A stretch of DNA of 58,027 nucleotides, filler included, from Sluysia triapertura (Eukaryota): the NCBI GenBank assembly GCA_046118255.1. It is 5 parts of 5 records of this genome, joined end to end, with 100 filler letters (N's around TTAATTAATTAA, not from the genome) between each part and the next. Parts side by side here need not be neighbours in the genome. Positions count along the whole stretch, not along the records: positions 1 to 11,056 come from JBJNIA010189552.1; positions 11,157 to 21,963 come from JBJNIA010193227.1; 3 more parts are not named here. The stretch is one strand, 5' to 3'. Within the stretch, counting starts at the first letter, position 1. Each line of letters opens with the position of its first letter. This document shows, in pieces, positions 1 to 30,562 of the stretch. Made by a program: the position numbers and the translations under genes. Below the pieces are notes generated by a model, which saw only the letters and a list, made by a program, of their open reading frames with translations, had not been told where the DNA came from and searched no databases.

Positions 1-30
1 AATCAAATTAAAATTTTTGATTATTGATTT

Positions 31-128
31 CAAATCCAACGGTTGGCCATTAAGTTTGTAAGTCCAATACGTTGGTGGACTCACTCATTTTGAAATTAAG
101 TTAATTTATTCTATACATTTTCTTGCAG
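31..128 (+). repeat. Motif A (hairpin plus mini-intron), copy 1
   Basis: CCAACG..GTAAGT..CGTTGG..ACTCAC..TTTTCTTGCAG; other copies at 35465 and 52251. Confidence 0.8.
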
Positions 129-832
129 AAATTATCTTCACTATCATCACGAGTCTGATAAGACTTTACATAGCTTAATAAGAATCTGACAGATATCTTT
201 TAAAAATGACATAAAATTTTAAACTTTATTTTATTGTTTTGTTTCTTTGTTATTTTTTGGCAATGCAATTTAAGTTCTAATTTCTGTTTAATTATTGAGT
301 CTGAAATGTTTTATCAATATATTAATTCCTAACGTTTTTGTGTACTATTTTATAAGTAGACATACAGTCACATAGCAAACATCCAATGAAATGTGAATTG
401 GCAGTGAGGTTGCAAATTCACATTCGATTGGATTTTGGTGGCATTCATATTATTTTGATAGCCATTTTCTTATAAGTAATTATTATTATTGTTATTTGTT
501 ATTATTATTACATTCGTTTAATTAAAAATGAAAAATATGCATAAATTTCTTTTTCTTTTAACATAATCTTTATGTCTTTAAATTTTTTTCAATAATCTTT
601 TATAAAAATCAGCTCAATTTGATGTTTTATTTTAATGTTTTGATTCTACTAATAGTTTTGGAACTATTTAACTCATCTATTTAACTTGTTTTCGTCTATC
701 AAAATTTAATGTACAACAATAAATAAATATTCATCTTATCTCAATTCACATTGGTTATCTAAAAATAAATATATTAAATAGATAAAATTATTATCTTACA
801 TCAATATTCTTTTAATATAATAGAAAATTATT

Positions 833-1045
833 GGTTTAGTAAATAACGATTGTTTATTGCCATAAGTACAATTTAAGGCTGTTCAGATCCATTGATTCCA
901 GAAAAATTACATTAATCAACTGAAAATACAAATACACTTAAAATCATTACTACATTTTTGCTGGCTTAAAAAATCATTCTGAAATTCCAATATCACACAT
1001 TCGGTTTTTATCGGTGTTAAAATATTTATTTTATTCATATATTGG
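833..1045 (+). pseudogene. Decayed ORF-X paralog fragment
   Basis: VNNDCLL..GCSDPLIP and HSEIPISHIRFLSVLKYLFY versus VCEEGCFL..GCEELTP and HEHQVTLYLINFKSGVEYTQY. Confidence 0.55.
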
Positions 1046-1321
1046 AAGAGTTTTGTTATTGAATTTTACAAGATTGTTACTATTTTGTTAAAGTAAATTA
1101 ATCACATTGTTGGTAATACATATTTAAAGTGTTTGAGGAATAACTGCTCGACTTACGTGTGAAACAAAATTACTCCTAAAATAGAGGGAAAGACTGACAT
1201 TATTCAAGTCTTTCGAAGTGTAAAGGTTGCAAATAAATATTTTTATTATATTATATTATATATTTTATATTTCTGTATATTTGCATATTTTATATTTTAA
1301 ACTCCAAAATCATATTATTTT

Positions 1322-1840
1322 CGTTGGTCCATAAGGCCAATTATAAAATATAAATCCACTTGACCGAGTCCTATGGCTAGATATTTTACCTAAAAAATCA
1401 AGTATTGTTACTATTATTATTGTTTATATTATTATTGTTGTATAAATTATATTTGTATATTTTATTTTTTATATAATATATAAAATTTAACTTCTATAAC
1501 TTTTGCGTTACGATATAAATCTGTTTGTAACATTATAATACTAAAAAACTTAAATTTAAATTAGTTTCGCATAAAAACACGTTGGTCACCATTGTATACT
1601 GCGTGAATTTAGATAATTTTATATCGATTTTTGGCCATGGTGTCCGTTAAGGCATTATATATAAATTAGTGACTTAGACTTCGTCCTAGTAACATTTAAT
1701 AAAGAAGTGAATCTAAAGACATTAAAGAAACACGTCATTGCACGGATATTTTTTATATCGTTACTCCTTAGCCATCGGTAAGCGGACTCTGTTAATTTAT
1801 TTTGCTGTTAGGTACGTTTTAGATAAAAGAAAAACGTCCA
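1322..1840 (+). repeat. Repeat block B; homologs at 6551-7225, 14065-14155 and 15880-15950
   Basis: Ordered anchors: ttggYc..ggYcaattataaaata, gagtc..ggctaga, cgttggtc, cgatttttg, gttaaggca, gtaa.cggactc, tttagat.aa. Confidence 0.75.
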
Positions 1841-2974
1841 GCAGAAGAAAACTAAAGCCCACTAAAATTGTAACTTTGAATTCAACCAACGATTAAGGTA
1901 ATTCAGATTTGATTAATTAAGAAGGCATAAGTTAAAGAACTATCAAAAGGTATTAAAGATCCTTGTTATTGAAATTATACGCTTCAAAAAGAATATAAAA
2001 CATATTCTGTATGTGGACCCATTTCACTAAATTAAATTTTGCGTGGATTTATTAGAAATAACCAAAATTATTATTATTTACTTTTACCTATTTTTATATT
2101 ATTATTATTTTAAATTATAAAATTATTTTATCGTTTAGATAAAATGTTTGCATTTTGCGATTACAAATTTATTTAAATACAAAAGTCAAATTTGTTTAAA
2201 TAAAGTGAAATAATAATAATATATTTCACTGCGTAAGTACTCAAAAGCGCTTAAGGTAAATCATTCACTATAATATTTCGGAAACAGAAAGAACTCTTTG
2301 CCTTTTTCTTAAATATTTCATAATCTTCAAACAATTTGACATTATCTGGTAACTGGTTGTATATTTTGAGACATAAACAGTATACAACCTATCACCTAGC
2401 TTGTTATCACTGTGGATTCTGTATAGATTATCTTGCCTCAATGAAATATTTATCTTGGTTTCCGATTTTTGTATTATTTCTAAAAAATATTCAGGACTTC
2501 CGTAATGTAAGCATTTGCAAATTATTGTAATGATTTTGAATTTTATTCTAGCTTTTATTGGCTACCAATGTAATTCCTTAAGATAAGGTGTTACATATGA
2601 TCTTCTTCCAACTTAGAGAATTAATCTTGTTGCATGATTAGTAAACAATAATAAAAGAAATTATTATTCTAAATCTAAAATTAAATGTCAGTGACTAAAT
2701 AAAAATAAATATTATAAAACCTTTTGGAATTTTGATTACTATTATCTATTTGTTATAGATAATTCTATAAATGTTTTGACTTCACATTAAAATTGGTAAA
2801 GGTGTAAAATTTTATTTTTATTTTTGTTTTTATATTTTATATTTTATTGTAAAAATTGTAAATTATTTTAAAAAAGTATTAAAAAATTACAAAAAGATTA
2901 TTAATATTATTTTTCTTTAAAAAATTACCAAAATTATAAATAAATTTTAATTAAAAAAATCTAAATTATCAAAA

Positions 2975-3120
2975 AGAATATTCAAGAACAGAGAATTATT
3001 TTAATGAATTAATTTTAATAAACGTGTCTTTATACGTATAATTATACAAAGACAAACAAAGGATGACAGACGCCATTATTAATTTACCATTTCAATAATG
3101 GTCATTGTGGTGGTACAGCC
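2975..3120 (+). promoter_or_regulatory. Diverged paralog of the 6073 promoter
   Basis: aGAAt-aTTCa-aGAAc at 2975-2989, then tgtct..tata, CGCCATT at 3071 and ggtcRtt..ggt, all aligning with 6100-6235. Confidence 0.5.
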
Positions 3121-3649
3121 TCATAGATTACATACACTACCCTTACTTTAATCAAAAATCACACTAAAATAAAGTACATTTGTAATCTTTACACTATTAC
3201 ACCTTGCATCATTAACAAAACATAGACGTATAATAAACTCTAACATTTTTTTAATATTCTGTTTATTGATATTGAAGTAACAATTGTTGTCACGTCATCA
3301 CTACGTCAACATCACTCTTTTAGTGTATCCTTTTATACAGAATTATTGTAAATGCTTTATACATCGTGTAATATTTTATATCTAAGATTTATGCAGTACT
3401 TTCATAAAGACATTTCAAGCAACTTCTTTCTCAAATGATCTTTCGTCGCATGTTTACATAAAGAATAAAAAGTATTAACAGATTTCCGAATGTCTTCACT
3501 GAAAATGCTGTTTTAAACCATTGATATATTTTATTTGGCAATAATTAAATGATCAATGTTTATTGTTGAATCGAAAACATGACTATTTTTACTGTAATAA
3601 AATAATGTTTTTTTCGTTTTAATATTCGTAGTTTAGCTTTCCACATTTT

Positions 3650-5229
3650 TTGATTAGACATGAGCAAGCGAAAGTTAAAATTAACGTAACTGATCAGTTT
3701 GTGAGATCAGTGAAAAATCAAGGCGAGAGTGAATTTAACAATTTTGATGTACCTGAATATTGTAAAAACAGCGAAGGATACAATTACATGCAACATTTAG
3801 TCAGTATGAAAGATTTTAAAAATCCAAACTTTGAGTTACCGGTAATTGATTTTCTCAAAGAATCTGATCGAAAATTCAATTTTATTTATGTTCAACATCA
3901 AATGAACAGTGCTAGTTTAGAAGTATTATATCGTAATGTGACTCGGTCATTTCAAATAACTATGGGGATAATTATAAGATATCGATAATATTACATAATT
4001 CAGATCAATTGAACAAAGAATTATTCTTAATAAATCAAATTCCACAATTTGAAATAATTTCTGAGACAGTAAGCACATTCGAATCATTATTTTCTGAGAA
4101 ATGCTTGCATGATGATGTTGTTGATGGAAGACAATCGACCATTAAAAATTGTAAATCGAAACAAGATTTGGATTATGAGCAGTGTTGTCCAAATTGTGTT
4201 TGGAGATTGTGTTTAGTTGGATGTTTAAATGATTATTTAAATTCAAATTTGCAAGCGGAAATATTAGAAATTCAACATGAGGTTTATGTATTCTTGCAGA
4301 ATCGTAATTATGAATATCCTATTAAACAAAGACAAAGTTTTAGAAATCAACGAAGCTTAAAAATTGGTCAAGTCTTAACCTTGATGGTTTAAATGGTAGA
4401 ATTAATTACCACTTGTCCACTACTGAACAGCAACGAGAAACTATACGAGATTTTAGAATTTCGATTGATAAATTTCCAGGAAACATTTAGTTATATTTAT
4501 TGGGAACTTATTTTAATAGATTATTAGAGTCAAGTAAAGTGAGACGGGCCCACGAAATATTTGTTAGATACGATAAGTGAAATATCGGATCAAGCTTTAA
4601 AGCATTTGACTGAGAATACTGATTTATGCAAAGAGTTTGAAATTCAAATACATAATAACATGTTAATTATGTCTAAAGTATGCGAAGAAGGCTGCTTTTT
4701 AACAAGTTTATTTGATCCGGGTTGTGAAGAATTAACTCCTGTTGATACTCGGAAACAAAATAATGCAGATGTAATGCTTGTGCCGTCTAAATATCACGAA
4801 CATCAGGTTACTCTTTATTTGATTAATTTTAAATCCGGTGTTGAATATACCCAATACGTGAGAGTTGAATTTACCACAAAAGATATCGTCACAACTATAA
4901 AATTTAAAGTTAAAGACAAACTTATTAGTGATAAATGTTTGTTTATAGTTTTATTTAATATATCAAATTGTCATTACGTATCAACAATAATCATCGTTTT
5001 TAATAATATAACTAATTCGTGTTATTCTTATTTTATTCGCCCTCTGAGGCACATACTAATTGTTATTAAGTGCCTTAAGCACAAAATCGTAGACACAAAC
5101 TGTAAATGTGAACCTAAATTTTGTAAATTTCATAAAATCTTTTTAAATTTTAGACGAGATATTCTAATAAAACATAATAATAATGAACATTACATAACAA
5201 ATGTAATATCAAAATTATTTCAAAATTAA
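3650..5229 (+). pseudogene. Fragmented unknown Cys/His-containing ORF ('ORF-X'), best-preserved copy
   Basis: Three consecutive long + strand ORFs in very AT-rich DNA; motifs recur in decayed paralogs at ~833-1045, ~12510-12615 and ~17380-17860. Confidence 0.65.
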
Positions 5230-6072
5230 AAGCATTATAATCGGAAAACATCATATTAAAATAAGATTGAATATTTATTATATACAATCAAAATTTAATA
5301 GCAAGCCCAGATAACAGTAATAATTATAATGATTACTGAATTATTATCATTATTAAAATTATTATTATTATTATGATTATTATTATTATGATTATTATTA
5401 TGATTATTATTATTATCATTATCATTATTATATTATTATTATTATTGTGAATTTATAAATTGCATGTACAAAATTATTATCTAAGATATTACGAAATAAA
5501 TTACATTCTAAATGACATATATTACAAATAGTACACGTACTGAATTTTTCAAAATATAGTCACACAATATATTGGGAGAAAATTAAAATTTTTGAATAAT
5601 AACCGATTGAATCTTCTCGAGTAAAAAATCAAAATAGAAGGCAAATATTTGAATTGTAACTATCTATCGTACATTGATTATTGAACTGTTCCTCTGGTAA
5701 CAATCCTCGTAGCGAAATTAACATCAGAACAATTTTCATTGTGGATATAATTGCAGTTTTTATTGACCAGGTAACACTTATTTTGTTTATCTGAGTTTTC
5801 TAAACATTCTAACTATACTATTTAAATTTACCGTCTTTGTAATTTTATATCATTTATTTATAAATTAAATGTATAAATTCATATAATTTATAAATTAATT
5901 AGAATTGTTTTACTAATAAATTTTTATTGCATATAATATGTGTGTAAAGATGTACAAAAATTTTTATATTTTAATTTCAAAAATTTATTAAATTATTATT
6001 ATTTAAAAATTTCTTATTTTAACTATATTACAATTAAAATTATTATTATTATAAATTAAAAAATAACTAAAA

Positions 6073-6201
6073 GGAAACTTCTCGAAAGAAGTTTGTTTGA
6101 TTAAATAAAACTTTTAAAAATGTCTATGCATATATAAAGATATACAAAAATAAAGAAGCCATTAGTCAATTCATCACAAAGAAACAATACTACGCCATTT
6201 T
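6073..6201 (+). promoter_or_regulatory. Pol II promoter: HSE, TATA, Inr, YY1-like site
   Basis: gGAAa-cTTCt-cGAAa at 6073-6087; TATATAAA at 6131; ATTAGTC 30 nt downstream at 6161; CGCCATTTT at 6193. Confidence 0.55.
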
Positions 6202-6550
6202 TTAATCACACATTCAATTCGGTCGTTATCGGTAAAAACAACCACTCAACGTCCCTACATCAAATTCTTTTCGAGGACTCCAGCAATTTTCAAATTCATA
6301 CTTCAATCGACGATATCGTGTCCCGCGTCTACGATTAGAGGGAATGATTTTTCATTCTCAAGAAATCAATTCTTTCGAAAGGAATGACAATCGGAGATCA
6401 CCAGCATTTATTATTAATTAATTCGTAAGTTTGTACTAAATAGTTTGTAAACTCACAATAAGATAAAATCTAGACTTAAACTATTATTTTTCACGGTTGG
6501 TCATTAAAGCCAATCACAAAATCAATTCAAAATATAAATTCATTACATTT

Positions 6551-7225
6551 TAGTTGGCCCTTCAGGTCAATTATAAAATAATTATCACAAGGTAGAGTCT
6601 ATCGGCTAGACCTTTACTATAATTTAACTATTATCTTTATTAAAATTTATTATTTTGGTGTTATAGATAATCATATTTGTCGAATTTTACAAATTTATAA
6701 TAATTTTATCTTATTTTTGTGAAATAAAAATATTAGAAGACTTCCGAATTCCTTTTTTATAATTATCCTAATGTTAACGTTTAACCTAAATTAAGTTTAT
6801 AGTCATTTTACTTTACGAATAATTCATAATTAATATATATTTTTTACATCGAAAAATTACGTTGATTCCGATATTGTTTCATTAAATTTTAATAAGAACT
6901 AGAAAATTCTAACGGTCATTATATTAGGGTTTGGAGATATAAAAAACGTTACATTGTTATACCATTATTATTCACTTGTTTTTTATATTAATTCAGATAT
7001 TCCATAAGCTAGCGTTGGTCTTGATTACTTTTAAAGCTATTTAGGTTTAGTTGACATAAACTACGATTTTTGCTCATTATTGTTAAGTTAAGGCAAAGAG
7101 TATTTTTATACGATTAATTTTGATAATTGTTTTACAGATACGCCATTAGTAAGTCGTATACTGTAAACGGACTCAGAATAATTAATTATTTTACTGTAGG
7201 TTAGGTCTTTAGATTAAGAAATTAT
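6551..7225 (+). repeat. Repeat block B, copy 2
   Basis: Same anchors in the same order as 1322-1840. Confidence 0.75.
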
Positions 7226-8186
7226 CAGTGACTCAATCAATAAATTCTTCTATTATCAATCAATAGTAACGTTAACAACGGCAGAATGTATATATTTAAA
7301 AGCAGTGGTTTAAAAAAACACTTTACAAATAAACAATGCTTAAAACAATAATTCAATGATAATAAATTATAATAATAATAATATTTATGAATATTGAGAT
7401 TGCACTTAATATTGATTTCAATATTTTAATTGGATTTTGAAGCTCCCTGTTGTGATTCTCTTTAAAAACCAACAACAATTATGAATTAACTTCCAAATGT
7501 GGAGGGTAGTATTAAATGAAAATATTATAATTTAATATTTTGAAATTTTAATTAAATAATACAAATGAATTAAACAAACGATATTTACAAAAATTAAACA
7601 ATATTTATAATTTTAATGCTATTTCACACTTTCATACTTCTGCATAGCGTTAAAATAGTTGTAAATATTATAAATATTTTAAGTATTATATTAACCCTTC
7701 CATTAAAAAGGTACAAAACTTAACAAAATAAACTTACCTATTGAAATTATGATTAAAAATTGTTGATTGAAAGTTATTGAAATTTTTTAATCTCTTTTGT
7801 AGTACTTTCCATGCAATTAACAATTATTCATTTTAAAATAAGAATTTATTTCCTACGTAATTATTTGTTTCGTAAAGCATTATTTCAATTATTTACTAGA
7901 TAATTAATTGTTTAACTATTTTATAGTTTCACTATATTTATAATTTGTACATAGATTATTTTATTATTATAAATTTTAATTTTAATGTGAAAAGATAAGA
8001 GTTTGTTTGGCACAAAAATCATTTTCTTGGATAATTGTTAATATTAAAACGGAAATTTATATTCAAATTTGATTAATAAAATTTGTCGACATAAAACCGA
8101 CTATCATGCACAATAATTAAGTCTAATTTCTGACTTCCTAGTAATTATTTGTGGTTAGTTGGGTCTTGAGTATTTATTGTTATAAA

Positions 8187-8713
8187 CAGTGGTGGCAAAA
8201 TTATCAGACTAAAACAGGAAAAATGTTTTTCTTTGGTTTTCTTAATATTTGCTACCCTGACCTGTAAACTCTCCATACGTGAATCCCATAGGAAATCTTT
8301 GGGTGATTGTCATGAGGAGAATTTCTACCCATAAACCAAAAACCAGGATGGAACTTACTCAAACCCTGATAAACGTATGGCATTACGATGACGAGACTTT
8401 AAGGATCAGGAAATTATTGGATAACAAAGGAGGGCAAACAAAATAAACTGATACAACAATTTATACATATTTGATTTGTAGTAAATTGTGTCATCACATT
8501 CGACATGAATAAAATTTCTGTATGTTTTGGATCTGAGTATTTTTATCTATTATTTTACTTTCACGAAATTTTTGTATTTTCCAATATTTTACATTTTCCA
8601 TAACAAATATCGGTAAATGGCATGTATTTATACACTTTTGATTAATAGTTTCGTAGTATCCTTGAAAATATCACAAAATGGTTGTCTTTAGTCTAATAAT
8701 TTGGTCACCATTG
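8187..8713 (+). mobile_element. Internally deleted Tc1-like transposon
   Basis: TIRs CAGTGGTGGCAAAATTATCAGACTAAA and rc CAATGGTGACCAAATTATTAGACTAAA; internal PVNSPYVNPIGNLW resembles WPxxSPDLNPIENLW. Confidence 0.85.
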
Positions 8714-9890
8714 TTTATATATGTTTTTTATCTATAAATATAGTTTAGTCTGAGGTTTATATCCCATGACGATACAGCTACAGGTCTTTTCTACTAAATC
8801 AGCTGAAAAGTTATTCGTCCAAAAGCACTGTCTAGCAAATTTATTTGCGGCGAATAGTTCCCCTTAATTTGAACTCTGAACAAATCGTATTTATGAAATA
8901 ATTCTACTCTTAGGGTATTAGTTCCTAACCGTTAAATAATTATTAATGAATAATAAACGACTTATTAAGGTTTATTAAACAAGTAAATAAAATAAAATAA
9001 AATATATATAAAATAAGAATGAGCATCTTAATCGAAGTTATTTTGATTTTAAATTTAATTTAAACCAGTATTAATTGTTGATTTTAAAAAGTTCGAGATT
9101 TTAAGTAAGATTTTAAGTCTAAAAACATAATAAAGAAAGCCTTAAGAGTAAAAAAACTTACGACTTCATGGAATATGATTGTATAAAATAAAATTTCGGT
9201 TAGTGTCGGCAATTGAAAATATCTTATTTCTTCGAATAATTAGTTTAAGAGATTAGAAATTCCGATGACGTTATTGAAAATCCTTTGCTAAGATAAGTTT
9301 TTTAACTTTTTGGAACAATAAACTTTATTTTGTTAAATCCTTTTATACATATAAAATCATAGAACTTTATTTCTTGTAATTAAAAGATTGTATAATTTTC
9401 TTTTGTAATGAAGCTTAAAATTTTTTATTACTTTACTTTCACAATTTTGATTTTAATTTGTTAAAGGAAATTTTTAAAACAACTATTTTTAAATTTTAAT
9501 TATTTTATTTTTTATATATTTTTCTAATAATTTAAAAAGATCAATAATTTTTATTAATAATATATATATATATATATATATGAAATTTTTAACAAGGTCA
9601 ATGTTCTTTTTTCTCCAGAATCATCGTATGAACTAGTATTCTAGTAATGTGTCACTGCGACTGACAGAAACAAAAACAAAATAATGCTGTTATTTTTTAT
9701 TATTATTATATTATCAACCTTATAATTATATTATTCTACCTTTATGTATTATAGGATTGTGCAAGTCTATATACTCATCGAAATAATTTTTTTAATACAT
9801 AAAACTTGACAGTAGTATTAGAAATATGAAAGAATATATTTAATTTTCTCATCTTCTTGCTCTCTCTGTCCACATTCTCATGTTTTTATA

Positions 9891-10305
9891 TGTTGGGATA
9901 AAAGGCCTAAAAAGTGCCAAGTAGTATAATTGAATATATTAAAAATGAAATTGTTAGACGGGGCTGATTGCTCACTGGTAGAGCATCGACTGCGCAGACG
10001 ATGGTCCCGTGTTCGATTCCCAATCAGTTCATTTTACGAAGTCTAACACATATATTAGAAAGTTGATTTAGTTTCATTGAATTTAGATTGAGATAGTTAA
10101 TAAGTAAAAAATAATTTGTACTAAGAGAATAGTAGACCCTCTATTAATTTTTGAATTGTGCATCAAGACTAAGATTGTCTTTTCGTAGTATTGACATATT
10201 ACTTCTATAACTAAGTCTTCCGTGAGATATAAAACTTAGATTATAGGCGAACCCAGTAAGATAATTATAATTGTCCAGTAAGAATTTTAATAAAATAACC
10301 GAACA
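9891..10305 (+). mobile_element. 5' LTR of a Ty3/Gypsy element containing a tRNA-like module
   Basis: Termini TGTTGGG...CCGAACA (imperfect inverted repeat), AATAAA at 10289, immediately followed by PBS and gag. Confidence 0.7.
9961..10031 (+). ncRNA. tRNA-like (pseudo-tRNA) Pol III module, copy 1
   Basis: Acceptor stem GGGCTGA/TCAGTTC, D arm GCTC-ACTGGTA-GAGC, B box GTTCGATTCC, followed by TTTT. The anticodon arm is irregular. Confidence 0.75.
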
Positions 10306-10311
10306 ATTATT

Positions 10312-10329
10312 TGGCGCCCGAATTGGGAC
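10312..10329 (+). promoter_or_regulatory. Primer-binding site, tRNA-Lys(UUU) type
   Basis: TGGCGCCCGAATTGGGAC matches the canonical TGGCGCCCGAACAGGGAC at 16 of 18 positions. Confidence 0.9.
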
Positions 10330-10477
10330 GAATCTATAACGATTGACGTAATAATTGACATTGATATTAACTTTTAACGTTTAAGTAGCTAAACTATTTA
10401 GGTTTAAGCATTTTTATCGCTGGATTTTTTGTAGTTTTTTAAGGATAGATATAAACGACAAAGAAAATAGAAGCGGA

Positions 10478-11056
10478 ATGCGCAGAATTAATTCTTTAGA
10501 AAATATTAAAATAAGTAGAACTAGGAAAACTAGGCAATATAAACCAAATATGGAACAAACAGCAGAAGGTTTAAGGGATTGCATTAAGCACTTATCAGTA
10601 AATATGAAACCTGCTGTTATTCTCCCAGAAATGAGGAAATTTAGTGGAAATGAAGAAGAATTATGCGATTTTCTTTATGAATATGACAGCGTTGCAGTGA
10701 ACGGCTGGTCAGAGATAGATAAAATTAAAAGAATTCAAAATTATTTGACAGGCGTCGCTATCCAGACGTACAAAGAAATTGAACCAGAGAAGAAACAAGA
10801 TTGGATTACATTTTAAAATACGTTTACAGAAGAAATTGCTTTAGATGACAGGTAAATATCATCTTAGAATGTTAAGTACTAGGAGACAAAGAGAAGATGA
10901 AACTGTTTATGAATTTGCTTGCGCGTTAAAGTGTTTAGTAATAAGGGCTAAAACATCTAATGATAAGATGGAAGCAACGTTAATAGATAAACTTAAGAAT
11001 GGTTTACGACCCGAATTACAAGTATTTGTAAGTTTAATAGATAATAAACCGTTTAA
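10478..11056 (+). pseudogene. gag: Ty3/Gypsy gag (stop plus frameshift at ~10816-10845; truncated by gap)
   Basis: FSG..E..DFL..Y...A..NGWS...K...L.G.A and RQREDETVYEF...L...LIDKLKNGL.P retrotransposon Gag motifs, downstream of the PBS. Confidence 0.88.
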
Positions 11057-11156
11057 NNNNNNNNNNNNNNNNNNNNNNNNNNNNNNNNNNNNNNNNNNNN
11101 TTAATTAATTAANNNNNNNNNNNNNNNNNNNNNNNNNNNNNNNNNNNNNNNNNNNN
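11057..11156. other. Assembly gap spacer (also 21964-22063, 34996-35095, 46781-46880)
   Basis: N44-TTAATTAATTAA-N44, a six-frame-stop linker. Confidence 0.97.
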
Positions 11157-11192
11157 CTTTCGCGGTAGATATTAGCGCAATATAAATTAATA

Positions 11193-11233
<41 letters not shown>

Positions 11234-12509
11234 GCGAAATAATTTATTAATTATATTATTGAATGAATTATAAAATTAACTATCAACAATATTAAAATTA
11301 ACTAATATAGGTTCATTGGAAAATATATTTTACTATTACAAAATTAATAAAATTACTACATAATTCAGTACTCATTGAATGATATCTACAAATTTCAAGC
11401 ATACGTCGTATTAGCGGCATATATTATTATTATTATTTTCAAACATTCATTATTCATTAAATTTTTGCATTAATTTACAGCATAGTTGAAGTGCATTCCA
11501 TTAATTTATTTTTTTACAACCACTCATTTGGTGACAAACAATATTCAACATTCTTCTAAAAGAGATTATTTATTCAGCATACAACATTTTATATTACTAT
11601 AAGCAAATATTTCATTAACACTTATTAATAATTAAATTCATTCATTAATATTAAATTCATGTATTAACAGAATTAAAATTTATCATTTACAAATTTCGGA
11701 TAATTATTCATTTATATTTATATGGAAGCATTCATTTAGATTTGTATTAGCTCATCAAGATTTAAATTTATATCGGCTCATCACGATTTAACATTTATCA
11801 CTTACATCGCCGCACTCATCATTCTCGCATTATTATATTCATTGTACATGAAAAGTTAAATAAATTACAATTAGTCAAATCAATATTGCAGGAAAAAATT
11901 AGTGCATAGAAGAAATTGACTATACTATTACTAAAATACAAACATTAAAATAATGTGATTTTAATTATAGAAAGAAATTGGCGATAAAATAGAAATTAAT
12001 TTAAAAGATGTCTTAACTAAAAAAAGAAAATTAAAAATTTAATGGCATAATTCAATAGTGAAAATATTACATAAAGCGAAGAAAAATTAATTTTGAAATT
12101 TTGTGGACAATTTTGATTTGAACGAAAAATCCGAATTAACAATATTTACAAGCGATATGAAAATGTCGAATTTGCATCTAAAAACTATTCTTTTTCATAC
12201 ATTTGAAATTTACTGTATTTAAACCCTTTATTGATCGGTAAACCGAACCACATTAATAATATTCCGCATTATTAATATTCAGACGAATGCTGATCGGATT
12301 TAAATTACACAATAAAAGAAACACACAGAATATGGAAGGTACTAAGCGATGTGATAATAAAATATCCACTAGAAAGCCAGCGAGTAACATAAAGTATAAG
12401 CCAAAAATGATTTCATCAGTTTACGACAGTTTAGAAACTCTTCATAAATTATTTTAAATACTTTTATTTTAAATTTTATCTGCCACCAAATATGTCCTCA
12501 ATACTAAAC

Positions 12510-12615
12510 CCAATTTACGATCACACTTTGTGAAATCAAATTTGATGACAAATTTACGTTCAACTTTTATTTATCTATCAAGCCAACAAATATAAACATG
12601 AAAAACCTTTCTTAA
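12510..12615 (+). pseudogene. Decayed ORF-X paralog fragment
   Basis: QFTITLCEIKFDDKFTFNFYLSI versus HQVTLYLINFKSGVEYTQYVRV; a short match. Confidence 0.35.
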
Positions 12616-13085
12616 ACCCGAAAATACCCTTATATATAATAAAGGCATATACGTTATTGTACGAAGAAATAAAGCCTGCCTGGTCAAACTTTGCAATGTA
12701 ATTTAATAAATAGCGTCGAAACGAATCTTCTTAACGAACATGTTTCTCATTGGATTGTATTTTCCAATGATATTAGCGCTACTTTAACTGTGGAATTTGA
12801 ATACAATCGAAACATGATTCAAAAATGGTTTTGGTGCAAATCATAAAATTCGAACAAAATTTTATTTATTGCATTATTTTCTCTATTATTATATATTACG
12901 TACAATATTTTATATTCATAAATGTTTTTCAGAAAATTGTTTTAATATTGGGAGATTTTAAAAGATAAATAAAAGTTTTTAAAGAGTTGACAAAGAAATT
13001 TGTTTTTAATAATAGAATCAGTAATTAATAATTCTATCATAATTGATACAATAGGCCAAAAGTTGTTATTGACAAGTCAATACAT

Positions 13086-13217
13086 TAAGGAATCTCCAGC
13101 AATCGGTTTAGCGTTTACCAGAAAAGCAAAATTCCATACAGGTGGAATTACTAAGGAATCCTTAACAATTAGTTTAGTGCTTATCCAAAAAGCAAAATTC
13201 CATACATGTGGAGCTAC
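13086..13217 (+). repeat. 66-bp tandem duplication (two units)
   Basis: taaggaatc...aaaagcaaaattccataca.gtgga repeated at a 66-nt offset. Confidence 0.85.
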
Positions 13218-16200
13218 CTTTGGAACTGTTCTCAGAAGTTTATTCTCTCTCATTAAGAAAAAGGATCATTGTATCTGTGTAATTTTTTATCACAAGTTTA
13301 ACATTTTAAGATAAAAAGATGAACAAAAATAATTACAACGCAAACGGATGTATTCATCGAGACCGTCATAGGGCTTTAAATTATTTTAAAATTCATTATA
13401 ATTATGTTATTGTTTGCCTTCTGTATGAGCGCATGCAATGAATTGATATTCGATAGAGCCATGATTTATAACGAATGTAAGTCTTATATCATTATGGTTG
13501 TTAATTTTTTTAATGTGTCACCAATTTTTGTAAAGTTCGTCTTATTTGTAGATAATAAAAATTTTTCATGTTATTTTTATTTAAAAGTTGTCCTTCATAA
13601 AGAAATTTTCGAGTGCCTTAAGCACCAATTTTGTCATAACCTTAGTCTTCATATAAATAAAATTTCTAATAATAATATGAGTAACAAAAGAAATAACAAT
13701 AATCTTAATTCTCTAAGAAATAAAACTAAATCCACAATAGCGATTTTACTCCTTAGACTTATCTTAAATTCATATTTAGTAATTCTTTTAAACCCCTATT
13801 TAATTAGGAGGAAATCTATTTTTGAAATTAATAAAAGATAAATGGCCAAAAGGCTTTAATTTAAAATTTACAATATTTTTATTTCTTTTGTAATTATCTA
13901 ATAATTCTTTTTCTTTTCATATTAAATTTTTAAAATAATTGTTTTATTTTGATTAATTTAAGATTAATATTAGAAGTTTGATATATATATAAATAATTTA
14001 GTGTTGAAATAAGCCACAGGAGCTTGACAAATTAAGAAGTTTTTTGTATTCAATAGTGTCAATTTTAGTTACAGATGTACGTCATAAGTCGTATATTGTA
14101 ACCGCACTCTGCCACAATTTATTTTGACTCGGTTAAGAGTTAAGAAAACCACAGCACGCTTTATGTAAATAAGGATATATTTTATACTTTTGTATATTTA
14201 GGTTTACAACATTAGAATGTCACCATAAACAATGCATTTTCCCGTACCATCGAGAAATATCAATTGCAGCCCTATTTTCATTTTCGTTGTTTTTACTTTT
14301 CCCGTGTGTTGCCCAACAATTTCTATAAAAAGACCTTTCGACAAGCGCATAAGTTCTTTTTTAATGAATTACCAATACCTACAAGTAGTAATGCATCAAA
14401 TGGTGCTGTAAATGTAGTTGAAACCTCGCCAATTCAATGCTAATCAAGAAGTACGTTAATGTGAGCATATCAAAGCCTAAACCCAATTTCCCACCTAACC
14501 TTACCATATCCCAAAAGCGCAATCGTCATTGATGACAATTAAAACATTACTATAAGTCACAAGTAATATTTTTGAAAGAAAAAGTAAGATTTTTCAAAAT
14601 GACATAAATAGTAAATAATAATCGCAACAGTTCGTTTCTCTCTACATTTTTAAATAGGATACAAAAATAACAAATAATCATAACATTGTAAGCTGCGGAG
14701 AAATAAGACTATTAAAGTCAATTCGGGATTCAACGATTATTCAAGAGGTCGACTATATTTTTGACTATATTTAGCTCAAATAGACAGTCATTAATAAAAT
14801 AGACGGAGATATTAATTTGTAACAAAAACCGATTCGTAATTAAGATATAATTTAAACTTTGTAAAGTTATTTGCACTAGTTTAATATATTTGCTATAAAA
14901 TCTAATCAAATTTAATATTAAATTTATTAGACTAGGTCCCATCAAATAAATCGTCATTGGAAAGGTTATATTAAATTTTAATCACCTTGTGTACCTACTT
15001 ATATACTTGTCTTTAATTGAATTTTGATAATTTGTGACTATATTAAAGTTTTACTATCACTCGTTTCATCATAATAAATATTATTTATTTATTGGAATTT
15101 TTCTAAAAGAAATAATTTTAAATTATTGTAAAATGAAAGAAAAACTTATCAGGTTTTAATTATTATCAATGTTCTAAATATTGTTTTTGATTTTCAGATG
15201 TAAAAGTGTGATGAAACGATTTTCAGACTTATTTCAGCAGCTCTTACCGTGGTCCTGTTCATCACGAATAGACTCCCAAAAATTGCACTTACACCCACGT
15301 TCATTCATCTCACGCCAGAGTTTTATGCCGAGTAATGGTCGTCCGGAACCACTTATCGTCCGTGACATGACATCGTGTTCTACGGTGTTTTTAGACAATT
15401 TCGTTAGTCGAATTACTGTTCTGATCGCAATTCTGTTATATATTGATTTAAAAGTGACGCCTGAACTAATATGTATTACGTCTTCCTTTTATATTCTTAA
15501 AATTAATAAAATATTCTTCTGTTATTTGTATTTGCATATCTGTAATAACAATTGTAACAATAAATTTTTTACGTGCCTTAAGCACCAATTTCATAATTAC
15601 AATTACGTGGATGACGATAACTTTTATAATGAACTTAATATTAGAGATAAATTTAATAATAATTATAAAAATTCATCTACAATAAGTGTCACAGTATACT
15701 TTCGTGGGATTATTGATTCATTTAGGCTCAAGGAAACATTAACAGAGAACTGATATAAGCCATTTAAAGAATCAATTAGCTAAATGAAGATAAATACCAC
15801 CTAGGTGAGGAGTAAAAGAAATTAAGGCCTCATAGGGATAGAAATAAAAAAGAAATCATTTAGGTAATCTCTCAGCAAAGAATAAATCGTATACTGTAGG
15901 TGAACCCACCACAAAATTTATTTTGTGAAATAAACTAGATAAAGAAAAATCTTGCACATAAAGTTGTTAACATCAATATATTTTTTGATCAAATTTTTTG
16001 ACCAAAATATAAAATTGTAAATTATAACAAAATTCTTAAAAATGTGAATTAGCAAAATTTTAAACAATTTTTATTGTTCTCGAATAATTTTCAAAGTTTT
16101 TTAACAGATTTCTAATTAATGAAAACTATAAAGTTTTAGATTAGTTTTAAGGTGACATTATTTTTGAATTATAATTTTGTAAAAAATCTAAAATTACAAA

Positions 16201-17379
16201 ACAAAATTAATAAAATTATATATTATTAAATAAAAGTACTTAATTAGTAAAAGTAGAGTACTTATTTGTTTAATAAGAATTATAAAACTCTATGTGAAAT
16301 TAGAATATAAAATTATATGCAATAATTAAAATATATAATTCCGTTTTTGAAAAGAAATCTATAACTAAAATCTATGAAATGATTATTGAATATTAAATAT
16401 GGAATTTATTATATAATTTATAAAATTATGAAATTATTTTATTATATTTTATAATTATTGCGGAATTAAATTTATAGTATAATAAATTAATATTGGAATT
16501 ATTGAATTTGGAATTACTGAAATAAATATTATTGGAATTTATTATGCAATAGCATATAATGACAAACAGTCTGCGTTATTATTAGGTTCATATTGAAGTA
16601 CCGAAACTTTCAACAATTAAAGTTATTGGAAATTTGTAACAATTTCTCACCGAAGCTATCGAAGACTATTGTTGGGTTTATTGAATTAAAACTTTGAATT
16701 ATATTGGATTTAATTGCAAAGTTAAACGTAGAAAGAGATTTCAACTAAGATAACATTTAAAGGAAAAATTATTATTTAAAATCACCATTAAATTACGTGT
16801 GGTATTCTTACTTTTGTTCACGTATTTTTATATAGTTTTGTGGTTAATAAAACTTTTGTTTTAACTAAGTCCTTTTTTCTTCTAAGCCTAAAAAAGGAGA
16901 AAATTCGAAATTTTAAATTCTACATCAGAGACGAATATTGTGACAATTCTAATTTTATAAAAAGTCAGTAGTAAATAACAAAGTAAAAGTTAAACGTAGA
17001 ATTGAAATTAAAGTTCAAATTCTAAGATGTAAAGTTAAAATAACATTTTAAGTGATATATTTTAAATAGTGTTTTTAAGTGACTTTGTTATATTTGAACT
17101 TTCAGATACATCTCAAGAATCTAGATGGCCTAAATATAAGACAACAAAATGAATTTTATAATTTTATTTTATTTGATGGCAATACCTCGAACTCTTACGA
17201 ATGCATCAAGTAAACATAAATTAAATATAAATATTTAAGGTAATTTTCTATCTTAATTTAATGTTAAAATGATTTGTTTAAACACTTTTGATTACTTAAA
17301 ATTAAGTGTGATCTTTTAATTGAAGTGGACTAAATTAATTAAAATATTTACGTGCTTGTGTTGAAAAAGTTGAATTGAA

Positions 17380-17860
17380 GAGCGTTTGTGTTCATGATAT
17401 TATTTTTGTAATTTGCGTAATGACAAAAGGTAATGAAATATTTGTTAATGTTGTTACTGGTGCTATGGAAGATTGTGTGTGCTTATATTATCATTTTTGA
17501 TAATTATTTAATATTAAGCGTTTTGAGTAATTGTTGCATATATATAATTACTGAACAAAGATAGTTAAAGAGCTTCTTATTGTTTTATTAATATGATTTA
17601 ATGCGAACATTGTAAGTGAAGGATTTAAAACCATAAGATAATTTAGTGGAGTATAAAAAATGTGAAAAAACATGATTACAAATTTGTCAAATTACGTTAT
17701 AATTCGAAATGATGAAGATTGAGGATTTGTTATAGCTTTTGAAGAAACTGCATGGTGTAAAAATGACAAAATTTTGTGTTAAGAGTTGAGTCACCACACA
17801 ATCCTTGTTTATAACAATGAATACAAATTATTTGATTATAAAGATTATTTAAAATAAATC
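17380..17860 (+). pseudogene. Decayed ORF-X paralog fragment
   Basis: CVHDII, CCYWCYGRLCVL and SHHTILVYNNEYKLFDYKDYLK versus CLHDDV, CCPNCVWRLCLV and HEHQVTLYLINFKSGVEYTQYVR. Confidence 0.6.
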
Positions 17861-18439
17861 CTAAAACTTTCGCGTAATTTTATTACGACGATATCAAGAA
17901 TACACATATTTTGCTTTTGTTACAGATTATTTCTATTTTGTAGTCCCACAAGCAAATTATATACAATAAATTAACAAATAATTAATCATATGAAGGAAAC
18001 AATTTTCAAAATTATGACGTTAATCATAATATACATCAAATTAACACTATCAAGTATTAAAACATCATATAGAAGTTCCGTTGAAGAAATTTCAAGTAAT
18101 GTATAAGTTACATACGTCTTATTATTTACATTTTTATTTCAGAATTTATAGTCATTAAATTACTAAACCAAGATAGGTGGTGTTGTTTAGAGAAAAATAT
18201 ATCTCGGGTGCTGAATTTGAAAATACATCACTACTCAAACGCGTAAAATTCGATTAAATAATGTCAAACTTTGTATGGTATAAAAATATCCTATTTAGCA
18301 TCAAAACAACAATGAAAGTAATTTCATTATATGTTTTAGTACAGTTAATTATTTTTCTTGCGTAAAACGATTTTTATGATTTACAATGAGCAAAATCATT
18401 TATTAAAAAATGAACCATTTATTGTTTATATATATAATC

Positions 18440-20520
18440 AAAGTTACTTATTGCAGTTGTCAACTCCTCATTTTTACATCAAAATCACAAACACATTTGA
18501 TAACAAATGAACATTTCTCACACAAACAAAGTACTCGATTCATTCAAAACATAAATGCAGTCATTGTGTATATGTTTATGTTTATTGTTATCATAATTTA
18601 TCACGAAAATAATTATCACAATAATTTTATATTACTGTAATTCTATCAACATTATCACATTAAACTGCATAATAATTCTATTATAATTTCAATCTCATAA
18701 TTGTTATTATTATAATTTTATTGTCAAAATTACTTTCTTTTCACTCTCTTCTTGTTTGTATGCATGTCTGTATGTAAAAAATGTATGTATGTGATTAAAA
18801 TATTCGATCCTAAAATGAGTGATGATGATAATACACCAATGATATCAAATGTTGTTAATGCAAAGCTGTTCCAAAAAATCGCTAAAGGATACTGAAAAGT
18901 ATATAAAACAATCATACAATAAAGTAAATCTATAAACAAAAGTTTCATGTGTAGTTTCATGTATTCAAAATGAATTAAAATTATTAAAATGATTAGTCTT
19001 ATTTGAGGTCAGATGTTATACTGTGTATTTGCATTTAAGCTGTTTGAATTGTTATTAAGTTACGAACAGGGAAACAAAATCATTCAAATATAAATACAGT
19101 AAAGATGTTAACAATTGTTAAATGTTACTAATGTTCCTAATGAATCTAACAAGGAAAATTTTCTGTTATGTAATTTTCTGTTAGATGATGAAAGTGTTTA
19201 TTTTATTATTATATAAATAAAGAAACTAATGCTAATTCAAATAAAACTCTATCAATGGAAGTCTCTAGTGAAATACATATACCAAATGTAATTAAAGGAA
19301 TTCGAAAATTCCACTTGAATTTAAAAAAGCTAATATACTCTGTAGTACTGAAGTACAAGGTCAATTAGAAACAATAAATTAGGAACTTAAAGGTGACAAA
19401 TGTAAGCATGCAATAGAATTAAAAGAAAATATTACTCGTAATATACCAAATTGTTCTGAATTAGAAAAACTGCAGATGAATCTAATTTAATTGAATCCAC
19501 AGCTCAAGACCTATCATTCGTCGATAAATCTCAAAACTATTTGTTAATTGCTGAAGCAAATAATCAAAAGTTAGAAAATGCAGAAATCCAAAAACAAGAA
19601 CAAAGTACGACAATTGTAGTGGTAACGATATAGCAGTTCGAGACAATGAAATTGTAATTGTTGAAGAATTAAATTGGGATGCCCACTTTTAATACGAATA
19701 AATCTGAATTAGAAAATTGTTATGGACAAAAAATCAATTTATTAAATTATAATGTATAAGGTAATTTTGCTGATGTTTTAATTTTTCTGTTTACATGTGC
19801 TTACCATTTGCATAAATATCGTAAAATTTCTGTCAGCTTCAAGTGGCGAATATTTTCTAAAATATTATATATGAAGATAATTTATGTGATTACAAAAGCT
19901 ACAATTACCTTTTTTGAACGAAGCTCTCGTAGCAAAAGACTTGAATATATTATTATCAATACTATTCATGGCAAATGTTTGTATTTATACATCAGTACGT
20001 GTATATATATTTGTTTATTTTATGCCTTTCTTTTTATTTAATAAAATTGTTCGTAAATTATTCAATTTGTTTGTTTTAAAGTTTTAATTGTTATAAAAGG
20101 CTTGGCGCCTTAAGTTTTAATAAGTTTGTTTACTTAATTATTTCTGAATATAAAATTTTAAAGTAAAAACCCAATTTTAATGAAATTTATAAACTTTAAA
20201 GTTTTTCGTAATTCTAACAATTTTACGCCCTCACCAAATCAACCATTTCCGATAAATATATAAATTTTTGACCAAATTCCCTTTGAAGGTTTACAGCATC
20301 TACAGCTATAAATATTCTTTCCAATTCATTTAATTATGTTGTCTTGATTAATAAATTGTACAGCATAAGGTTTTTGAAAAATCTGTCTGCAAATACTGAT
20401 GGCAATGACAAAACACGACCTCTTTGTTTTTTGATGAAAATATATTAATCTCTGAACCTGGACGTCTTTTTGTTTTCATTCTTTTTCCAATCCCAGTTCA
20501 CTATGTTTATAACTACTATA
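18440..20520 (+). repeat. 3' internal region of a large Gypsy-like element; inverted homolog at ~39000-41750
   Basis: Collinear matches: 18440-18800 with rc 41380-41740 (atgaacatttct, tcattcaaaa..agtcattgt); 20035-20120 with rc 39545-39645 (atttaataaaattgtt..aaaaggc..cgcct). Confidence 0.72.
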
Positions 20521-21162
20521 TTAACATTTACTAAAAACGTATTTAAATTTCTCCATGATTAATAAATTTGGTTTAATTTTTTTATAATTTTACTTCTTAT
20601 TTGATTTTATTTCAAAATTCATGCTTTAAAACACGAGATTTTTTCAGATTATACTGGATAATAAATTTAAACAAAGCTTAACCTAATATACGACGAATAT
20701 CCTTAATGTTTTATAGTAATAATAAATATCAAAAATATAAATTAAAATTATATCGAATATTATACCTTATCTAATCGAATCACTTATAAACACTTAATCT
20801 GATGTATAAAAATTTTAAAATAAATGCTTCAATTTTATTCGGCAATGTTCATTTATTTATATATCATTCCAATGTTGTTCCATACTGATTTAAATTAATC
20901 AAAACGAATAAAAAATGCAATCAAATAACCCAAAAAAGAATATTATAATGTGATAAATATTTTTACTTATTGTTATAATTGCTCGGACTAATTTTATTAA
21001 AAATATTGATATTTTATTATGAAATTGTAGTAGATTATCGGTTTATAAAACTAATGATAGTAGCCTTAATAATTACAATTTTGATTAATAATAAACGTGA
21101 ATGTATGTTGTTGTATATATTTATATTTGTTAACGTTTTATTTCTTATATTCTATCTCTCTT

Positions 21163-21198
21163 AAATTTGGGGACAAATTTTTATAATCGGGGAAGTGA
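21163..21198 (+). promoter_or_regulatory. Gypsy 3' internal end and polypurine tract
   Basis: AAATTTGGGGACAAATTTTT..CGGGGAAGTGA directly precedes TGTTAGG, a typical Ty3/Gypsy PPT-LTR junction. Confidence 0.7.
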
Positions 21199-21963
21199 TG
21201 TTAGGTTTCCATCAGAACCCTCTAAAACTATGTAAAATGTCATTAAAAACTTTAGCATCATTTAAAAAATATTTTAAAGCTTCCAAATTTTAAAAAATAT
21301 TTATTTTCCAAAAAAGAAAACAAAATCTCGAAAAAAGAAAATACGCTTGTACAAATAGAATAGAAGCTTCTAGAATGTTCTAGACATTTCATCTATTCTT
21401 ATTGGTTGATGACTGGTATATAAACTAGCATCAGTTCAATTACAAATACAATTTCATTATCACAATTTCGTTTTTACCAATTTTATGTAAAGAAATTAAT
21501 TAACACAAGTGCATCACTACAATTTCATTGTAACAACATAGTTTTTACAAATTTTGTGTGAACACATTATCATTATCTCAATCTCAATTGGCATAATTGA
21601 ATTTTTTTAATTTTAATCGCTTCACCGTTTATTGACGTGGTTTCATCGACGCAGTCTCCTTTTCAAATTGTGTGAAGACGGTTTATTCTCTCAATTTGAT
21701 TTCGGACTGTTTCAAAGGACTAATTGCAATCACTTTATTAGTCATTTGGTCAGGTTTATTATTATAAGAAGGTTTCAATCTAAAAAATTAAAGCATAAAA
21801 TACACTTAAATTAAATTAAGAAATTTTCAAAAACCCCGATCTACTGAGGGGAACGTTTATAAATTAAAATAGCATACATTAAAAATCAAAGATCTCTCAG
21901 ATTTTGATTTAAAATTAGTAGATATTTTAATAACTTGATCTGGTAAGTGATCTTTTCTCTGTT
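21199..21963 (+). mobile_element. 3' LTR (truncated by gap) with HSE-CCAAT-TATA promoter
   Basis: Starts TG after the PPT. HSE aGAAg-cTTCt-aGAAt-gTTCt at 21362-21381, ATTGG at 21401, TATATAAA at 21417, and a ~70-bp direct repeat at 21447-21570. Confidence 0.62.
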
Positions 21964-24900: not shown

Positions 24901-26386
24901 GCAATAACGAAGTGATAATTGTTTTACTCCAGATGTCTACGATAACAGAAAACATGTCAAACATTAGTAGATTCTTCTTATTTGAACCGCAATATGTGTT
25001 AATTTATGTTAATGAAATCTGTGATGAAAGTGCACTAAAGTTTTAGAATGTAATTCAATTCGATGGTTTAGATTCCTTAAGAAGCTTTATGAACATAATC
25101 ATTGCCATAATCGCATAAATAAAAATTAACTGGGTTGCTGCCATCATCAGCAGTGACATTTTAAATTGCATTTATAAGTTGTCATCACAGTGTGGTTTAT
25201 TCATCTGTTGTTTTTACTATTTATTTCGTGTGTTTCTATTGGCCGTCCAACCAGAGCTAGCATTACTGTTTTTATCATCTCAACACCTCTGGTTGGACGA
25301 CCAATCAAGAATTGCTAACTAGCAGTAAAAAATTATTAGTCAATATTAAACTCAAAAATTTTTGTGTCATGTTAATAATAATAAAGTGTAATTAAAACTT
25401 CAATCTAAAAAGTTTTAATAAAGTTGAATAATATGATTTGTAAATTTAATACAAAATATAAATTAAATTTTAATCTTAATCTAAAAGTTATTAATCTTCT
25501 TCATGGACCCCATCAATACATTTTTATTTCACGAGTTTGAATCCAAACTTAAAAAGAATCTACATAATAACATTAGACCGAAAATTCTTTTTGACAATTT
25601 TTTATTAAAGGTAATTTTTAACTATATTGCTATCAAATTAATTTATGTTGACTATTTTTATTTCAGAATTCGCAAACTGACGTTGCCGATAGCATGCCTA
25701 TAAACTGACCGAGATATTGGATATAAGCAACAATGTTTTGTTACAAATTTAAATATAATATTCAATTATATCTCAAATAAATTTATGTCATCTTTTTGTC
25801 ATTTTCTTTTGTTATTTAGTCATAAATTTTGGTTTAAAGATTCAATTAAACTTATAATTTTTAATAAAAATTTTAGAATAAATTCTAAATTTCTAATTGT
25901 TAAAGTAATAAATAATTTAAAGACTAATAACACAACATTCATAACCATTATATATCCAAATTCATTAGCGTCTAGTTTTGATCAGTAGATGCTTTTGAAT
26001 GCTTATGTCCTCGTCTTTGTGTTTGTTTTTTAATTTGAAATTTTTATCCTTTTTTCTGAGTGCTTTTTGGTGTTTAAGAATATATAATTGATATGATTTT
26101 TTAATACTATAAATTGCAATATAGTTTTCGCTCTTTTATATTTTAAAAGTGTTTAAAATGTTTGAATATTTTAAAATTAAAATTAATGTTTTAAGATGAT
26201 GAACAAAATATCTAACTTCTAAATGAGAAAACATTTTCTTATCAATTTTCTACATATTTTTATAAATTACTTGATTAAGTGAAAATTAACTAAAACTAAA
26301 ATATTAAACTAAATAATCCCGGCCTCAACTTTTGTATTATAAAAACAAAATGAAAGCATTTTGGATTATTTTTTATTTCTTCATTA

Positions 26387-26847: not shown

Positions 26848-26939
26848 TATTTTAGTCATCAAAATTTTATTTCGATATATATACATAACATGTTTATTTT
26901 GTTTTATTATCTTATGCTAGTCAAAAAATTGTTCATTAA

Positions 26940-27170: not shown

Positions 27171-27297
27171 TTAATGGTCAAACGACGGTTAAGTTGTATA
27201 GTTGAAAAATATTTTTTGGTACCTTTTATAATGTAAATTTTTACAAATTAATAACAAAAATATTTCGAATATAGTGAATAAAGTGATTATTTTTTAG

Positions 27298-30480: not shown

Positions 30481-30504
30481 TAAATTAATTTATATTATAA
30501 TTAC

Positions 30505-30560: not shown

Positions 30561-30562
<2 letters not shown>

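Follow-up and report, generated by a model that had tools for sequence, protein, structure and literature searches.

We analysed positions 31-21963 of a 58,027-nucleotide (nt) window from Sluysia triapertura (assembly GCA_046118255.1), in which five contigs of ~11-13 kb each (1-11056, 11157-21963, 22064-34995, 35096-46780 and 46881-58027) are joined by N spacers; the analysed span corresponds to contigs 1 and 2. The DNA has a G+C content of 25%, and CpG is not depleted. Five or six pieces of a cassette with heat-shock elements (HSEs), small open reading frames (ORFs) with an embedded hairpin, and further blocks lie in the span; they are old and diverged and share one orientation (Table 1). A sequence-only reading had described nested, decayed copies of one giant long terminal repeat (LTR) element with spliced accessory genes. 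This family of cassettes, which combines heat-shock promoters and a dual-coding hairpin, is faint and real, and no description of such a cassette was present in the literature searched, subscription papers and supplements lying outside that search. A single giant spliced element is not established.

The 13-mer GTGCCTTAAGCAC occurs at 5070, 13613 and 15573, and is the sole 13-mer with at least five G/C to occur three times (0 in 40 nulls), bearing out the threefold hairpin noticed earlier. All three copies are in the same phase and read CLKH after a CYxY motif. The frames that contain them are the three longest open frames of contigs 1 and 2 (228, 191 and 153 codons), where four frames of at least 150 codons were seen compared with 0.03 expected. 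Leave-one-out profiles recovered the hairpin in 3 of 3 cases. Host exons use each of its four codons in a minority of cases (8/21, 9/55, 7/42 and 2/11), yet all three copies have the same codons, and the wobble G preceding the hairpin is kept in each under three different amino acids. Because minority codons are identical and this wobble G is kept, the 13 bases are constrained at the nucleotide level, beyond the protein. The conserved stretch is exactly the 4-bp stem plus the CTTAA loop.

GTGCCTT is also a 7-mer miR-124 site (excerpted text of bioRxiv 2020.06.01.127126), an explanation that fits less well, covering the first 7-8 of the 13 conserved bases and placing the site in coding sequence. 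A Ty1-type +1 slip site (CUU-AGG-C in the available passages of PMC12719033) was considered at the hairpin (CTT AAG C), but the short +1 frames, which stop after 4, 11 and 34 codons, speak against it. Separately, contig 3 has CTTAA-loop hairpins at 33481-33501 and 23577, one of which has the first 10 bases of the 13-mer.

Two of the hairpin-bearing frames, X13 and X15, are copies of a coding unit, ORF-X. Their proteins are 32% identical and align from the ATG to near their ends (score 104 versus 40 ± 7; 0 of 2,000 shuffles). The 111 aligned codons contain no stops, whereas four non-coding repeat pairs have 8-9 even in their best frame (a fifth control pair aligned over 19 codons only), and 161 of the 204 bases in the DNA alignment are aligned in phase. 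The sequence-only reading had counted four copies; only those at 13425 and 15367 are significantly alike, with candidates at 3.3, 6.2, 14.2 and 21.6 kb falling within control scores. ORF-X had one sub-threshold Pfam match (otubain, E 0.013), no PDB or NCBIfam match, no exact match for any of four start variants and none among 340 viral pattern matches; the large searches covered ORF-A, not ORF-X. Its structure model had a predicted local distance difference test (pLDDT) score of 36.

The third hairpin lies in the tail of ORF-A, a broken, intronless orphan frame. Breaks occur near its start and near 3.99 kb, and three in-frame stops fall at 4.39-4.54 kb, yet only 3 stops are present in 318 codons versus 28 expected. 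Homologues were absent among 371 and 19 candidates from a search of 5.8 billion sequences and, for the parts searched, among 1.84 billion representatives. The first frame had no usable Atlas match, metagenome pattern matches yielded 0 of 83, and the scanned parts had no Pfam homologue; the single-sequence structure model had a pLDDT of 34. Other open frames lie nearby and elsewhere in the window. Just 5' of X13 is a 107-codon open frame (12991-13314) with an internal 66-nt (22-amino-acid (aa)) tandem repeat and no Pfam or NCBIfam match. Two badly decayed, coding-like + strand stretches (17333-17989 and 18820-19730), without Pfam matches, may be accessory ORFs 5' of the candidate polypurine tract (PPT). 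Long open frames in strand-biased AT-rich DNA, with no credible Pfam match, occur at 34272-34994(-), 54421-54927(+) and 41186-41611(-) (241, 168 and 142 codons).

A perfect three-unit HSE (nGAAnnTTCnnGAAn) is found at 2976, 6074 and 21363 and nowhere else in the window (~1.1 expected over the whole window); all three are thus confined to contigs 1 and 2. A TATA-like box follows each on the + strand, 40-47 nt 3' of the HSE, with YCATT ~30-38 nt beyond the box, a motif that we take to be an initiator. Pairs of HSE and TATA have a null mean of 0.075 and none of 200 simulated Markov windows attained three, in agreement with the earlier call of heat-shock promoters at these sites. What did not hold was their description as homologous module copies: a leave-one-out profile recovered 1 of 4, at E 0.075 only, and single-sequence nhmmer missed the promoters. 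The upstream region of P2 weakly resembles that of P1 (z 4.4). GC-richer segments 3' of the promoters are not unusual in structure (z -1.1 to +1.5). On another contig, 51071-52345 comprises a P1-like AT-rich head that contains a one-mismatch HSE at 51288 and then a U35+E repeat (related to ~35097-35553). This repeat lies directly 5' of an exon of a host gene of RING-H2 type (52462-53833), presumably goliath-like.

The claims about splicing and antisense coding fared less well. Mini-introns as a class are not supported, as an acceptor lies near the donor in 4 of 14 cases on the + strand compared with 3 of 10 on the - strand, and the proposed spliced leader before ORF-A finds no GT[AG]AG donor between the P1 start site and the acceptor. 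The supposedly conserved antisense ORF is one 84-aa frame at 15237-15488(-) with no homologue elsewhere.

The recurring modules beyond the promoters and ORFs are blocks B, C and D and repeat E. The two B copies (1296-1456 and 6526-6680) are identical at 108 of 161 positions (nhmmer E 1.6 × 10^-4; 159 tiles, 0 control matches), and their stems of 7-9 bp differ between copies on both arms while pairing is kept. Four copies of B had been proposed; there are two, and 31-128 is a copy of the separate repeat E. Block C was recovered in 3 of 3 leave-one-out tests (7132, 14070 and 15882), and a fourth copy was found at 1776. A C-like trace (E 0.047) also occurs at 46769-46716(-), beyond the gene for tubulin-specific chaperone E. 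The D pair is weak (targeted z 6.6) and is missed by the tile scan. Repeat E, recovered in 3 of 3 leave-one-out tests, is linked to the cassette by a weak trace at 6443-6498 (E 0.2). Only in repeat E do all copies keep the donor, the branch-like ACTCAC and the pyrimidine tract, and the DNA pattern of E had 0 matches in metagenomes. Recurrence of modules on the + strand thus stands for B, C, E and, weakly, D, within a span of two contigs rather than the three first described. Identity between module copies is ~55-67% at the DNA level and 32% at the protein level, and conservation takes the form of islands.

Table 1 Features of the analysed span (positions along the window).
Feature	Position	Strand	Description
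Repeat E	31-128	+	Hairpin enclosing GTAAG, then ACTCAC and pyrimidine tract; further copies 35465-35553, 52253-52345
Block B copy 1	1296-1456	+	Stem-loop 1323-1341, loop CATAA
Block C copy	1776-1834	+	E 0.001; weaker trace 1995-2046
Promoter P1 (putative)	2976-3080	+	Three-unit HSE 2976-2988, TATA-like ~3034, CCATT initiator-like motif ~3072
ORF-A	3660-5229	+	Broken intronless orphan ORF, ~520 codons; tail carries CYxY...CLKH
Hairpin H1	5070-5082	+	Stem GTGC/GCAC, loop CTTAA; in frame as CLKH, in ORF-A tail
Promoter P2 (putative)	6074-6200	+	HSE 6074-6086, TATA ~6130, CCATT ~6168
Block B copy 2	6495-6680	+	Stem-loops 6495-6515 and 6551-6573, loop CTTCA
Block C copy	7092-7221	+	E 7 × 10^-5
PBS-like site and broken Ty3/Gypsy gag	10312-11054	+	TGGCGCCCGAA; outside cassette; gag 67% like 36664-36990; Atlas gag-like matches
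ORF-X copy X13	13425-13841	+	138 aa, no stops; hydrophobic N-half, CYxY...CLKHQF, Asn-rich tail
Hairpin H2	13613-13625	+	Inside X13
Block D copy 1	13763-13887	+	Overlaps X13 end
Block C copy	14026-14145	+	E 6 × 10^-5
ORF-X copy X15	15367-15753	+	128 aa from ATG aligned to X13; 191-codon frame, open from 15178
Hairpin H3	15573-15585	+	Inside X15
Block C copy	15882-15925	+	E 0.033
Candidate PPT and TG start of LTR	21189-21201	+	GGGGAAGTGA, then TGT
Promoter P3 (putative)	21363-21460	+	4-5-unit HSE, TATA 21417, TCATT ~21452
Block D copy 2	21805-21936	+	Directly before contig end

Partial orders can be read directly: P2 is followed by B and C, P1 by ORF-A and the hairpin, and P3 by D, and in four units, all on the + strand, a hairpin is followed by C at 320-610 nt. 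The loops of B and the 13-mer hairpin share a pattern, C-U/A-U-A/C-A, present at 8 sites versus 0.17 expected, although the pattern was defined after 6 had been seen. These regularities bear on whether the modules belong together at all. They may instead form an unlinked mosaic of different families that gathered in the same heterochromatic contigs: the repeat of ORF-X, hairpin and C; block B; repeat E; and three HSE-bearing LTR heads, each independent of the others. The lack of homology among promoters would fit this, as would D being the sole, weak link to P3, the location of E mostly elsewhere and at least five other unrelated repeats within the span. Yet every module is on the + strand in both contigs, all three perfect HSEs lie there, and C trails the B and 13-mer hairpins alike at similar distances, with the shared loop pattern pointing the same way if its post hoc definition is kept in mind. 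We regard a mosaic as unlikely.

The surroundings of the cassette are those of mobile DNA. Decayed repeats crowd the span and are interleaved with it: a broken gag with a primer-binding site (PBS)-like sequence, a Tc1-like remnant, a tRNA-derived short interspersed nuclear element (SINE) and further LTR-like repeats, with repeats F, L2 and J common to the span and other contigs; ORF-A is itself decayed. Copies of E and of a P1-like head are also present on other contigs, with one E directly 5' of the host RING gene exon. P3 sits 164 nt inside a junction of a PPT and an LTR-like TG start, and a candidate PPT is present before P3 only (we presume the labels PPT and PBS from the motifs). The Gypsy PPT-LTR junction claimed at 21199 is present as a motif; alone it is at chance level, with 1.65 expected per window, and the LTR end stays a candidate, whereas with an HSE within 300 nt the expectation is 0.015. 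Both the decayed-transposon setting of the cassette and the position of P3 inside this junction make a retroelement origin plausible.

There is precedent in Macrostomum lignano, in which, in the portions of PMC12801592 available, HSE-containing LTR families of Ty3/Gypsy from the Mag, CsRN1 and Gmr1/Osvaldo clades are described and heat induction is shown. The likenesses are a probable flatworm host and the canonical nGAAnnTTCnnGAAn 5' of a TATA box, found here in three cases, one of them inside a candidate PPT-TG junction. In the same source the HSEs lie in LTRs of complete elements with reverse transcriptase (RT), RNase H (RH) and integrase (IN), whereas the cassette here has no LTR pair and no pol, carries an additional small ORF that contains a hairpin, and has a heat response that is predicted. 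The likeliest single reading, which we favour tentatively in view of the surroundings, the decay, the P3 junction and these validated LTRs, is that the pieces represent LTR regions and accessory-gene regions of several related Ty3/Gypsy lineages, HSE-bearing and heat-inducible, that piled up in a repeat-rich flatworm region. They are not one family, because the units share ~55-67% DNA identity, compared with the 80% rule by which families are defined in the excerpted PMC12801592.

Several observations weigh against a retroelement origin. No paired LTRs were found: the sole TG start is at 21199, the contig ends 765 nt on and there is no second copy in the window. Six scans for target-site duplications (TSDs) gave 9 TGT/ACA pairs with a repeat compared with ~4.6 expected, all repeats being A/T-only and without clear terminal inverted repeats. 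No PBS follows any cassette unit, and no pol (RT or IN) was present in the frames scanned in contigs 1 and 2 (~11 kb each). No single unit has a promoter, an intact ORF-X and C; no HSE promoter is visible for X13 or X15, and P3 has no detectable homology to P1 or P2 and is tied to the remaining modules through weak block D only. An X-like trace after P1 scores 61 compared with 63 for a control, and the ORF-A tail protein is not significantly like X13 or X15 (243 and 1,169 of 2,000 shuffles). Codon-position identities between X13 and X15 are 30/50, 39/49 and 29/49, whereas a gag control is instead lowest at position 3, and triplet-biased AT-rich DNA elsewhere in the window also yields long frames (41183-41611 and 54421-54927). 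The best + strand pairs in an all-against-all comparison (C and the hairpin; 34.4 and 33.1) only just surpass control maxima of 32.8, 30.0 and 29.9 (5,778 pairs each). Since the similarities of C, D and the hairpin lie near control maxima and are missed by the single-sequence nhmmer tile scan, they are old and faint. Of the nested giant element first proposed, what survives is a co-oriented, HSE-associated cassette among decayed transposons; the single element is not supported, with no paired LTRs, convincing TSD, PBS after a unit or pol found within the two contigs.

The same absences would fit a host family of small heat-inducible genes, lineage-specific and arranged in tandem, in which X13 and X15 are intact and the others are pseudogenes; the PPT-TG motif before P3 would then be a chance match or belong to a separate solo LTR. 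Selection on old paralogues would account for frames that stay free of stops despite deep divergence, the geometry of HSE, TATA and initiator is canonical, the units are co-oriented in tandem, and the lack of a homologue in the libraries searched is as expected for orphan genes. Yet no Hsp or other Pfam family was found 3' of any HSE among the frames scanned, ORF-A is intronless and decayed whereas local host genes have introns, and the units are fragmented, with transposon pieces lying between them. We consider a host family possible but on the doubtful side, and retain the retroelement reading.

The span holds one gag, which is not part of the cassette. The site at 10312 is the only clear PBS-like one, and its short upstream region of its own has at most a C trace (E 0.6-1.7). 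The relative of this gag at 36664-39116 is a decayed compact Ty3/Gypsy with gag, protease (PR), RT (Pfam E 2 × 10^-13) and RH pieces. Because this relative, 67% alike, passes directly into PR, RT and RH, the local gag belongs to a compact Gypsy and is not Burro-like; this Gypsy is unrelated to the cassette. Burro elements are longer than 30 kb, with LTRs of several kb and copies in the thousands. Burro, in the accessible part of PMC6431247, encodes one polyprotein of ~4,900-5,100 aa with gag, MATH, BCL2, BIR, env-like and ankyrin domains. It resembles the present case in its AT-rich flatworm genome and accessory ORFs, with decaying fragments reported in Dugesia japonica. It differs in that Pfam matches to MATH, BCL2, BIR, ankyrin or env-like domains are absent here from the 29 + 18 frames scanned (partial six-frame coverage) and in that the relative of the local gag (36.7-39 kb) runs from gag directly to PR-RT-RH without a Burro-like insert. 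A giant flatworm retroelement lineage that, unlike Burro with its single polyprotein, carries tandem, separately promoted heat-inducible small genes (the ORF-X family and ORF-A), each with the same pentaloop hairpin inside its coding sequence, seems to us distinctly unlikely.

Extra ORFs of unknown function and long LTR or pol-to-LTR regions also link the cassette to plant Ogre/Retand (Tat) and rotifer LTR elements, as far as the excerpts of PMC6431247, PMC11963269 and PMC5408684 describe them. The extra ORFs of Retand are conserved and antisense, whereas no conserved minus-strand ORF of the Retand/Ogre type, between pol and the 3' LTR, was found here, and none of the env, GDSL or DEDDy types of rotifer ORF3 was detected. 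Transposon-borne HSEs drive heat-induced transcription in ONSEN (Arabidopsis Copia) and the HSE arrays of C. elegans Helitron1, elements of other superfamilies (partial texts of PMC12801592 and PMC6927752).

Such cases raise the prospect of another kind of mobile element: a Helitron, an array of co-oriented ORFs of the Penelope/Terminon type or a large DNA virus that became endogenised. The head-to-tail, co-oriented ORF units with hairpins and the orphan, intronless ORF-A would be compatible with this, HSE-bearing Helitrons are known in Caenorhabditis and Terminons have co-oriented ORFs (excerpts of PMC6927752 and PMC6431247). Helitron ends were not found, however, with CTRR within 30 nt 3' of 0 of 9 hairpins; no hammerhead core (CTGANGA...GAAA) occurs within 1-21963 and there was no Rfam match, counter to a Penelope/Terminon origin; and the DNA pattern of the 13-mer hairpin had 0 matches in viral contigs, counter to a DNA virus. 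We consider these origins very unlikely.

Assembled from its separate pieces, the composite unit runs from an AT-rich upstream region through HSE, TATA and initiator to a coding region ending in ORF-X with its hairpin, then D and C. Non-coding block B, with a like hairpin, may stand in place of the ORF-X coding region, with D and C ~320-610 nt on. From the observed geometry and by analogy with the available sections of PMC12801592, heat-activated heat-shock factor would bind the HSE and RNA polymerase II would start ~30 nt past the TATA box. The open frames, and homology for two copies, suggest that the RNA encodes a hydrophobic protein of 130-190 aa with a Cys/His motif. Given its constraint, the hairpin may act as a protein-read RNA signal overlaid on coding sequence, with a role in localisation, packaging or the control of translation.

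The host is probably a flatworm, judging by one gene at 45111-46610, a tubulin-specific chaperone E with short introns: for its CAP-Gly exon at 45.1 kb, the best two of 10 matches are Trichobilharzia (fluke) tubulin-chaperone-E proteins (53%, E 4 × 10^-22). Among the neighbouring repeats, 8181-8719 is a Tc1/mariner-like deletion derivative with 33-bp inverted repeats (29/33 matching), part of which matches 40974-41070; its remnant at 8261-8440 resembles what we take to be a Tc1 DDE transposase C-terminus. The tRNA-derived SINE at 9888-10048 is 80% like 44333-44491(-), the latter copy being tRNA-Ser according to ARAGORN and Rfam. Repeat L2, which starts TGTAGGGAA, has three copies (18456-18792, 41381-41739(-) and 36306-36661; also 57955) and is probably another LTR family. 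Block J lies ~1.2-1.7 kb 3' of L2 (19995-20233, like 39681-39443) and is followed by a degenerate gag-like frame at 39475-38940(-), recognised by eye and with no Pfam match. Repeat F (2392-2654) is 73% like 48031-48252(-), its hairpin kept through two-sided change; the second F copy interrupts repeat G (47310-49294, like 55311-56558), in which residual coding similarity is seen.

If the cassette is transposon-borne, the hijacking of heat shock by Ty3/Gypsy elements would extend to a second flatworm lineage, and a small-protein cargo with a dual-coding RNA hairpin would be added to such elements. If it is instead a host family, it would represent an orphan heat-inducible gene cluster. The hairpin sequence, read in frame as CLKH, offers a concrete motif for finding the family and testing its role.

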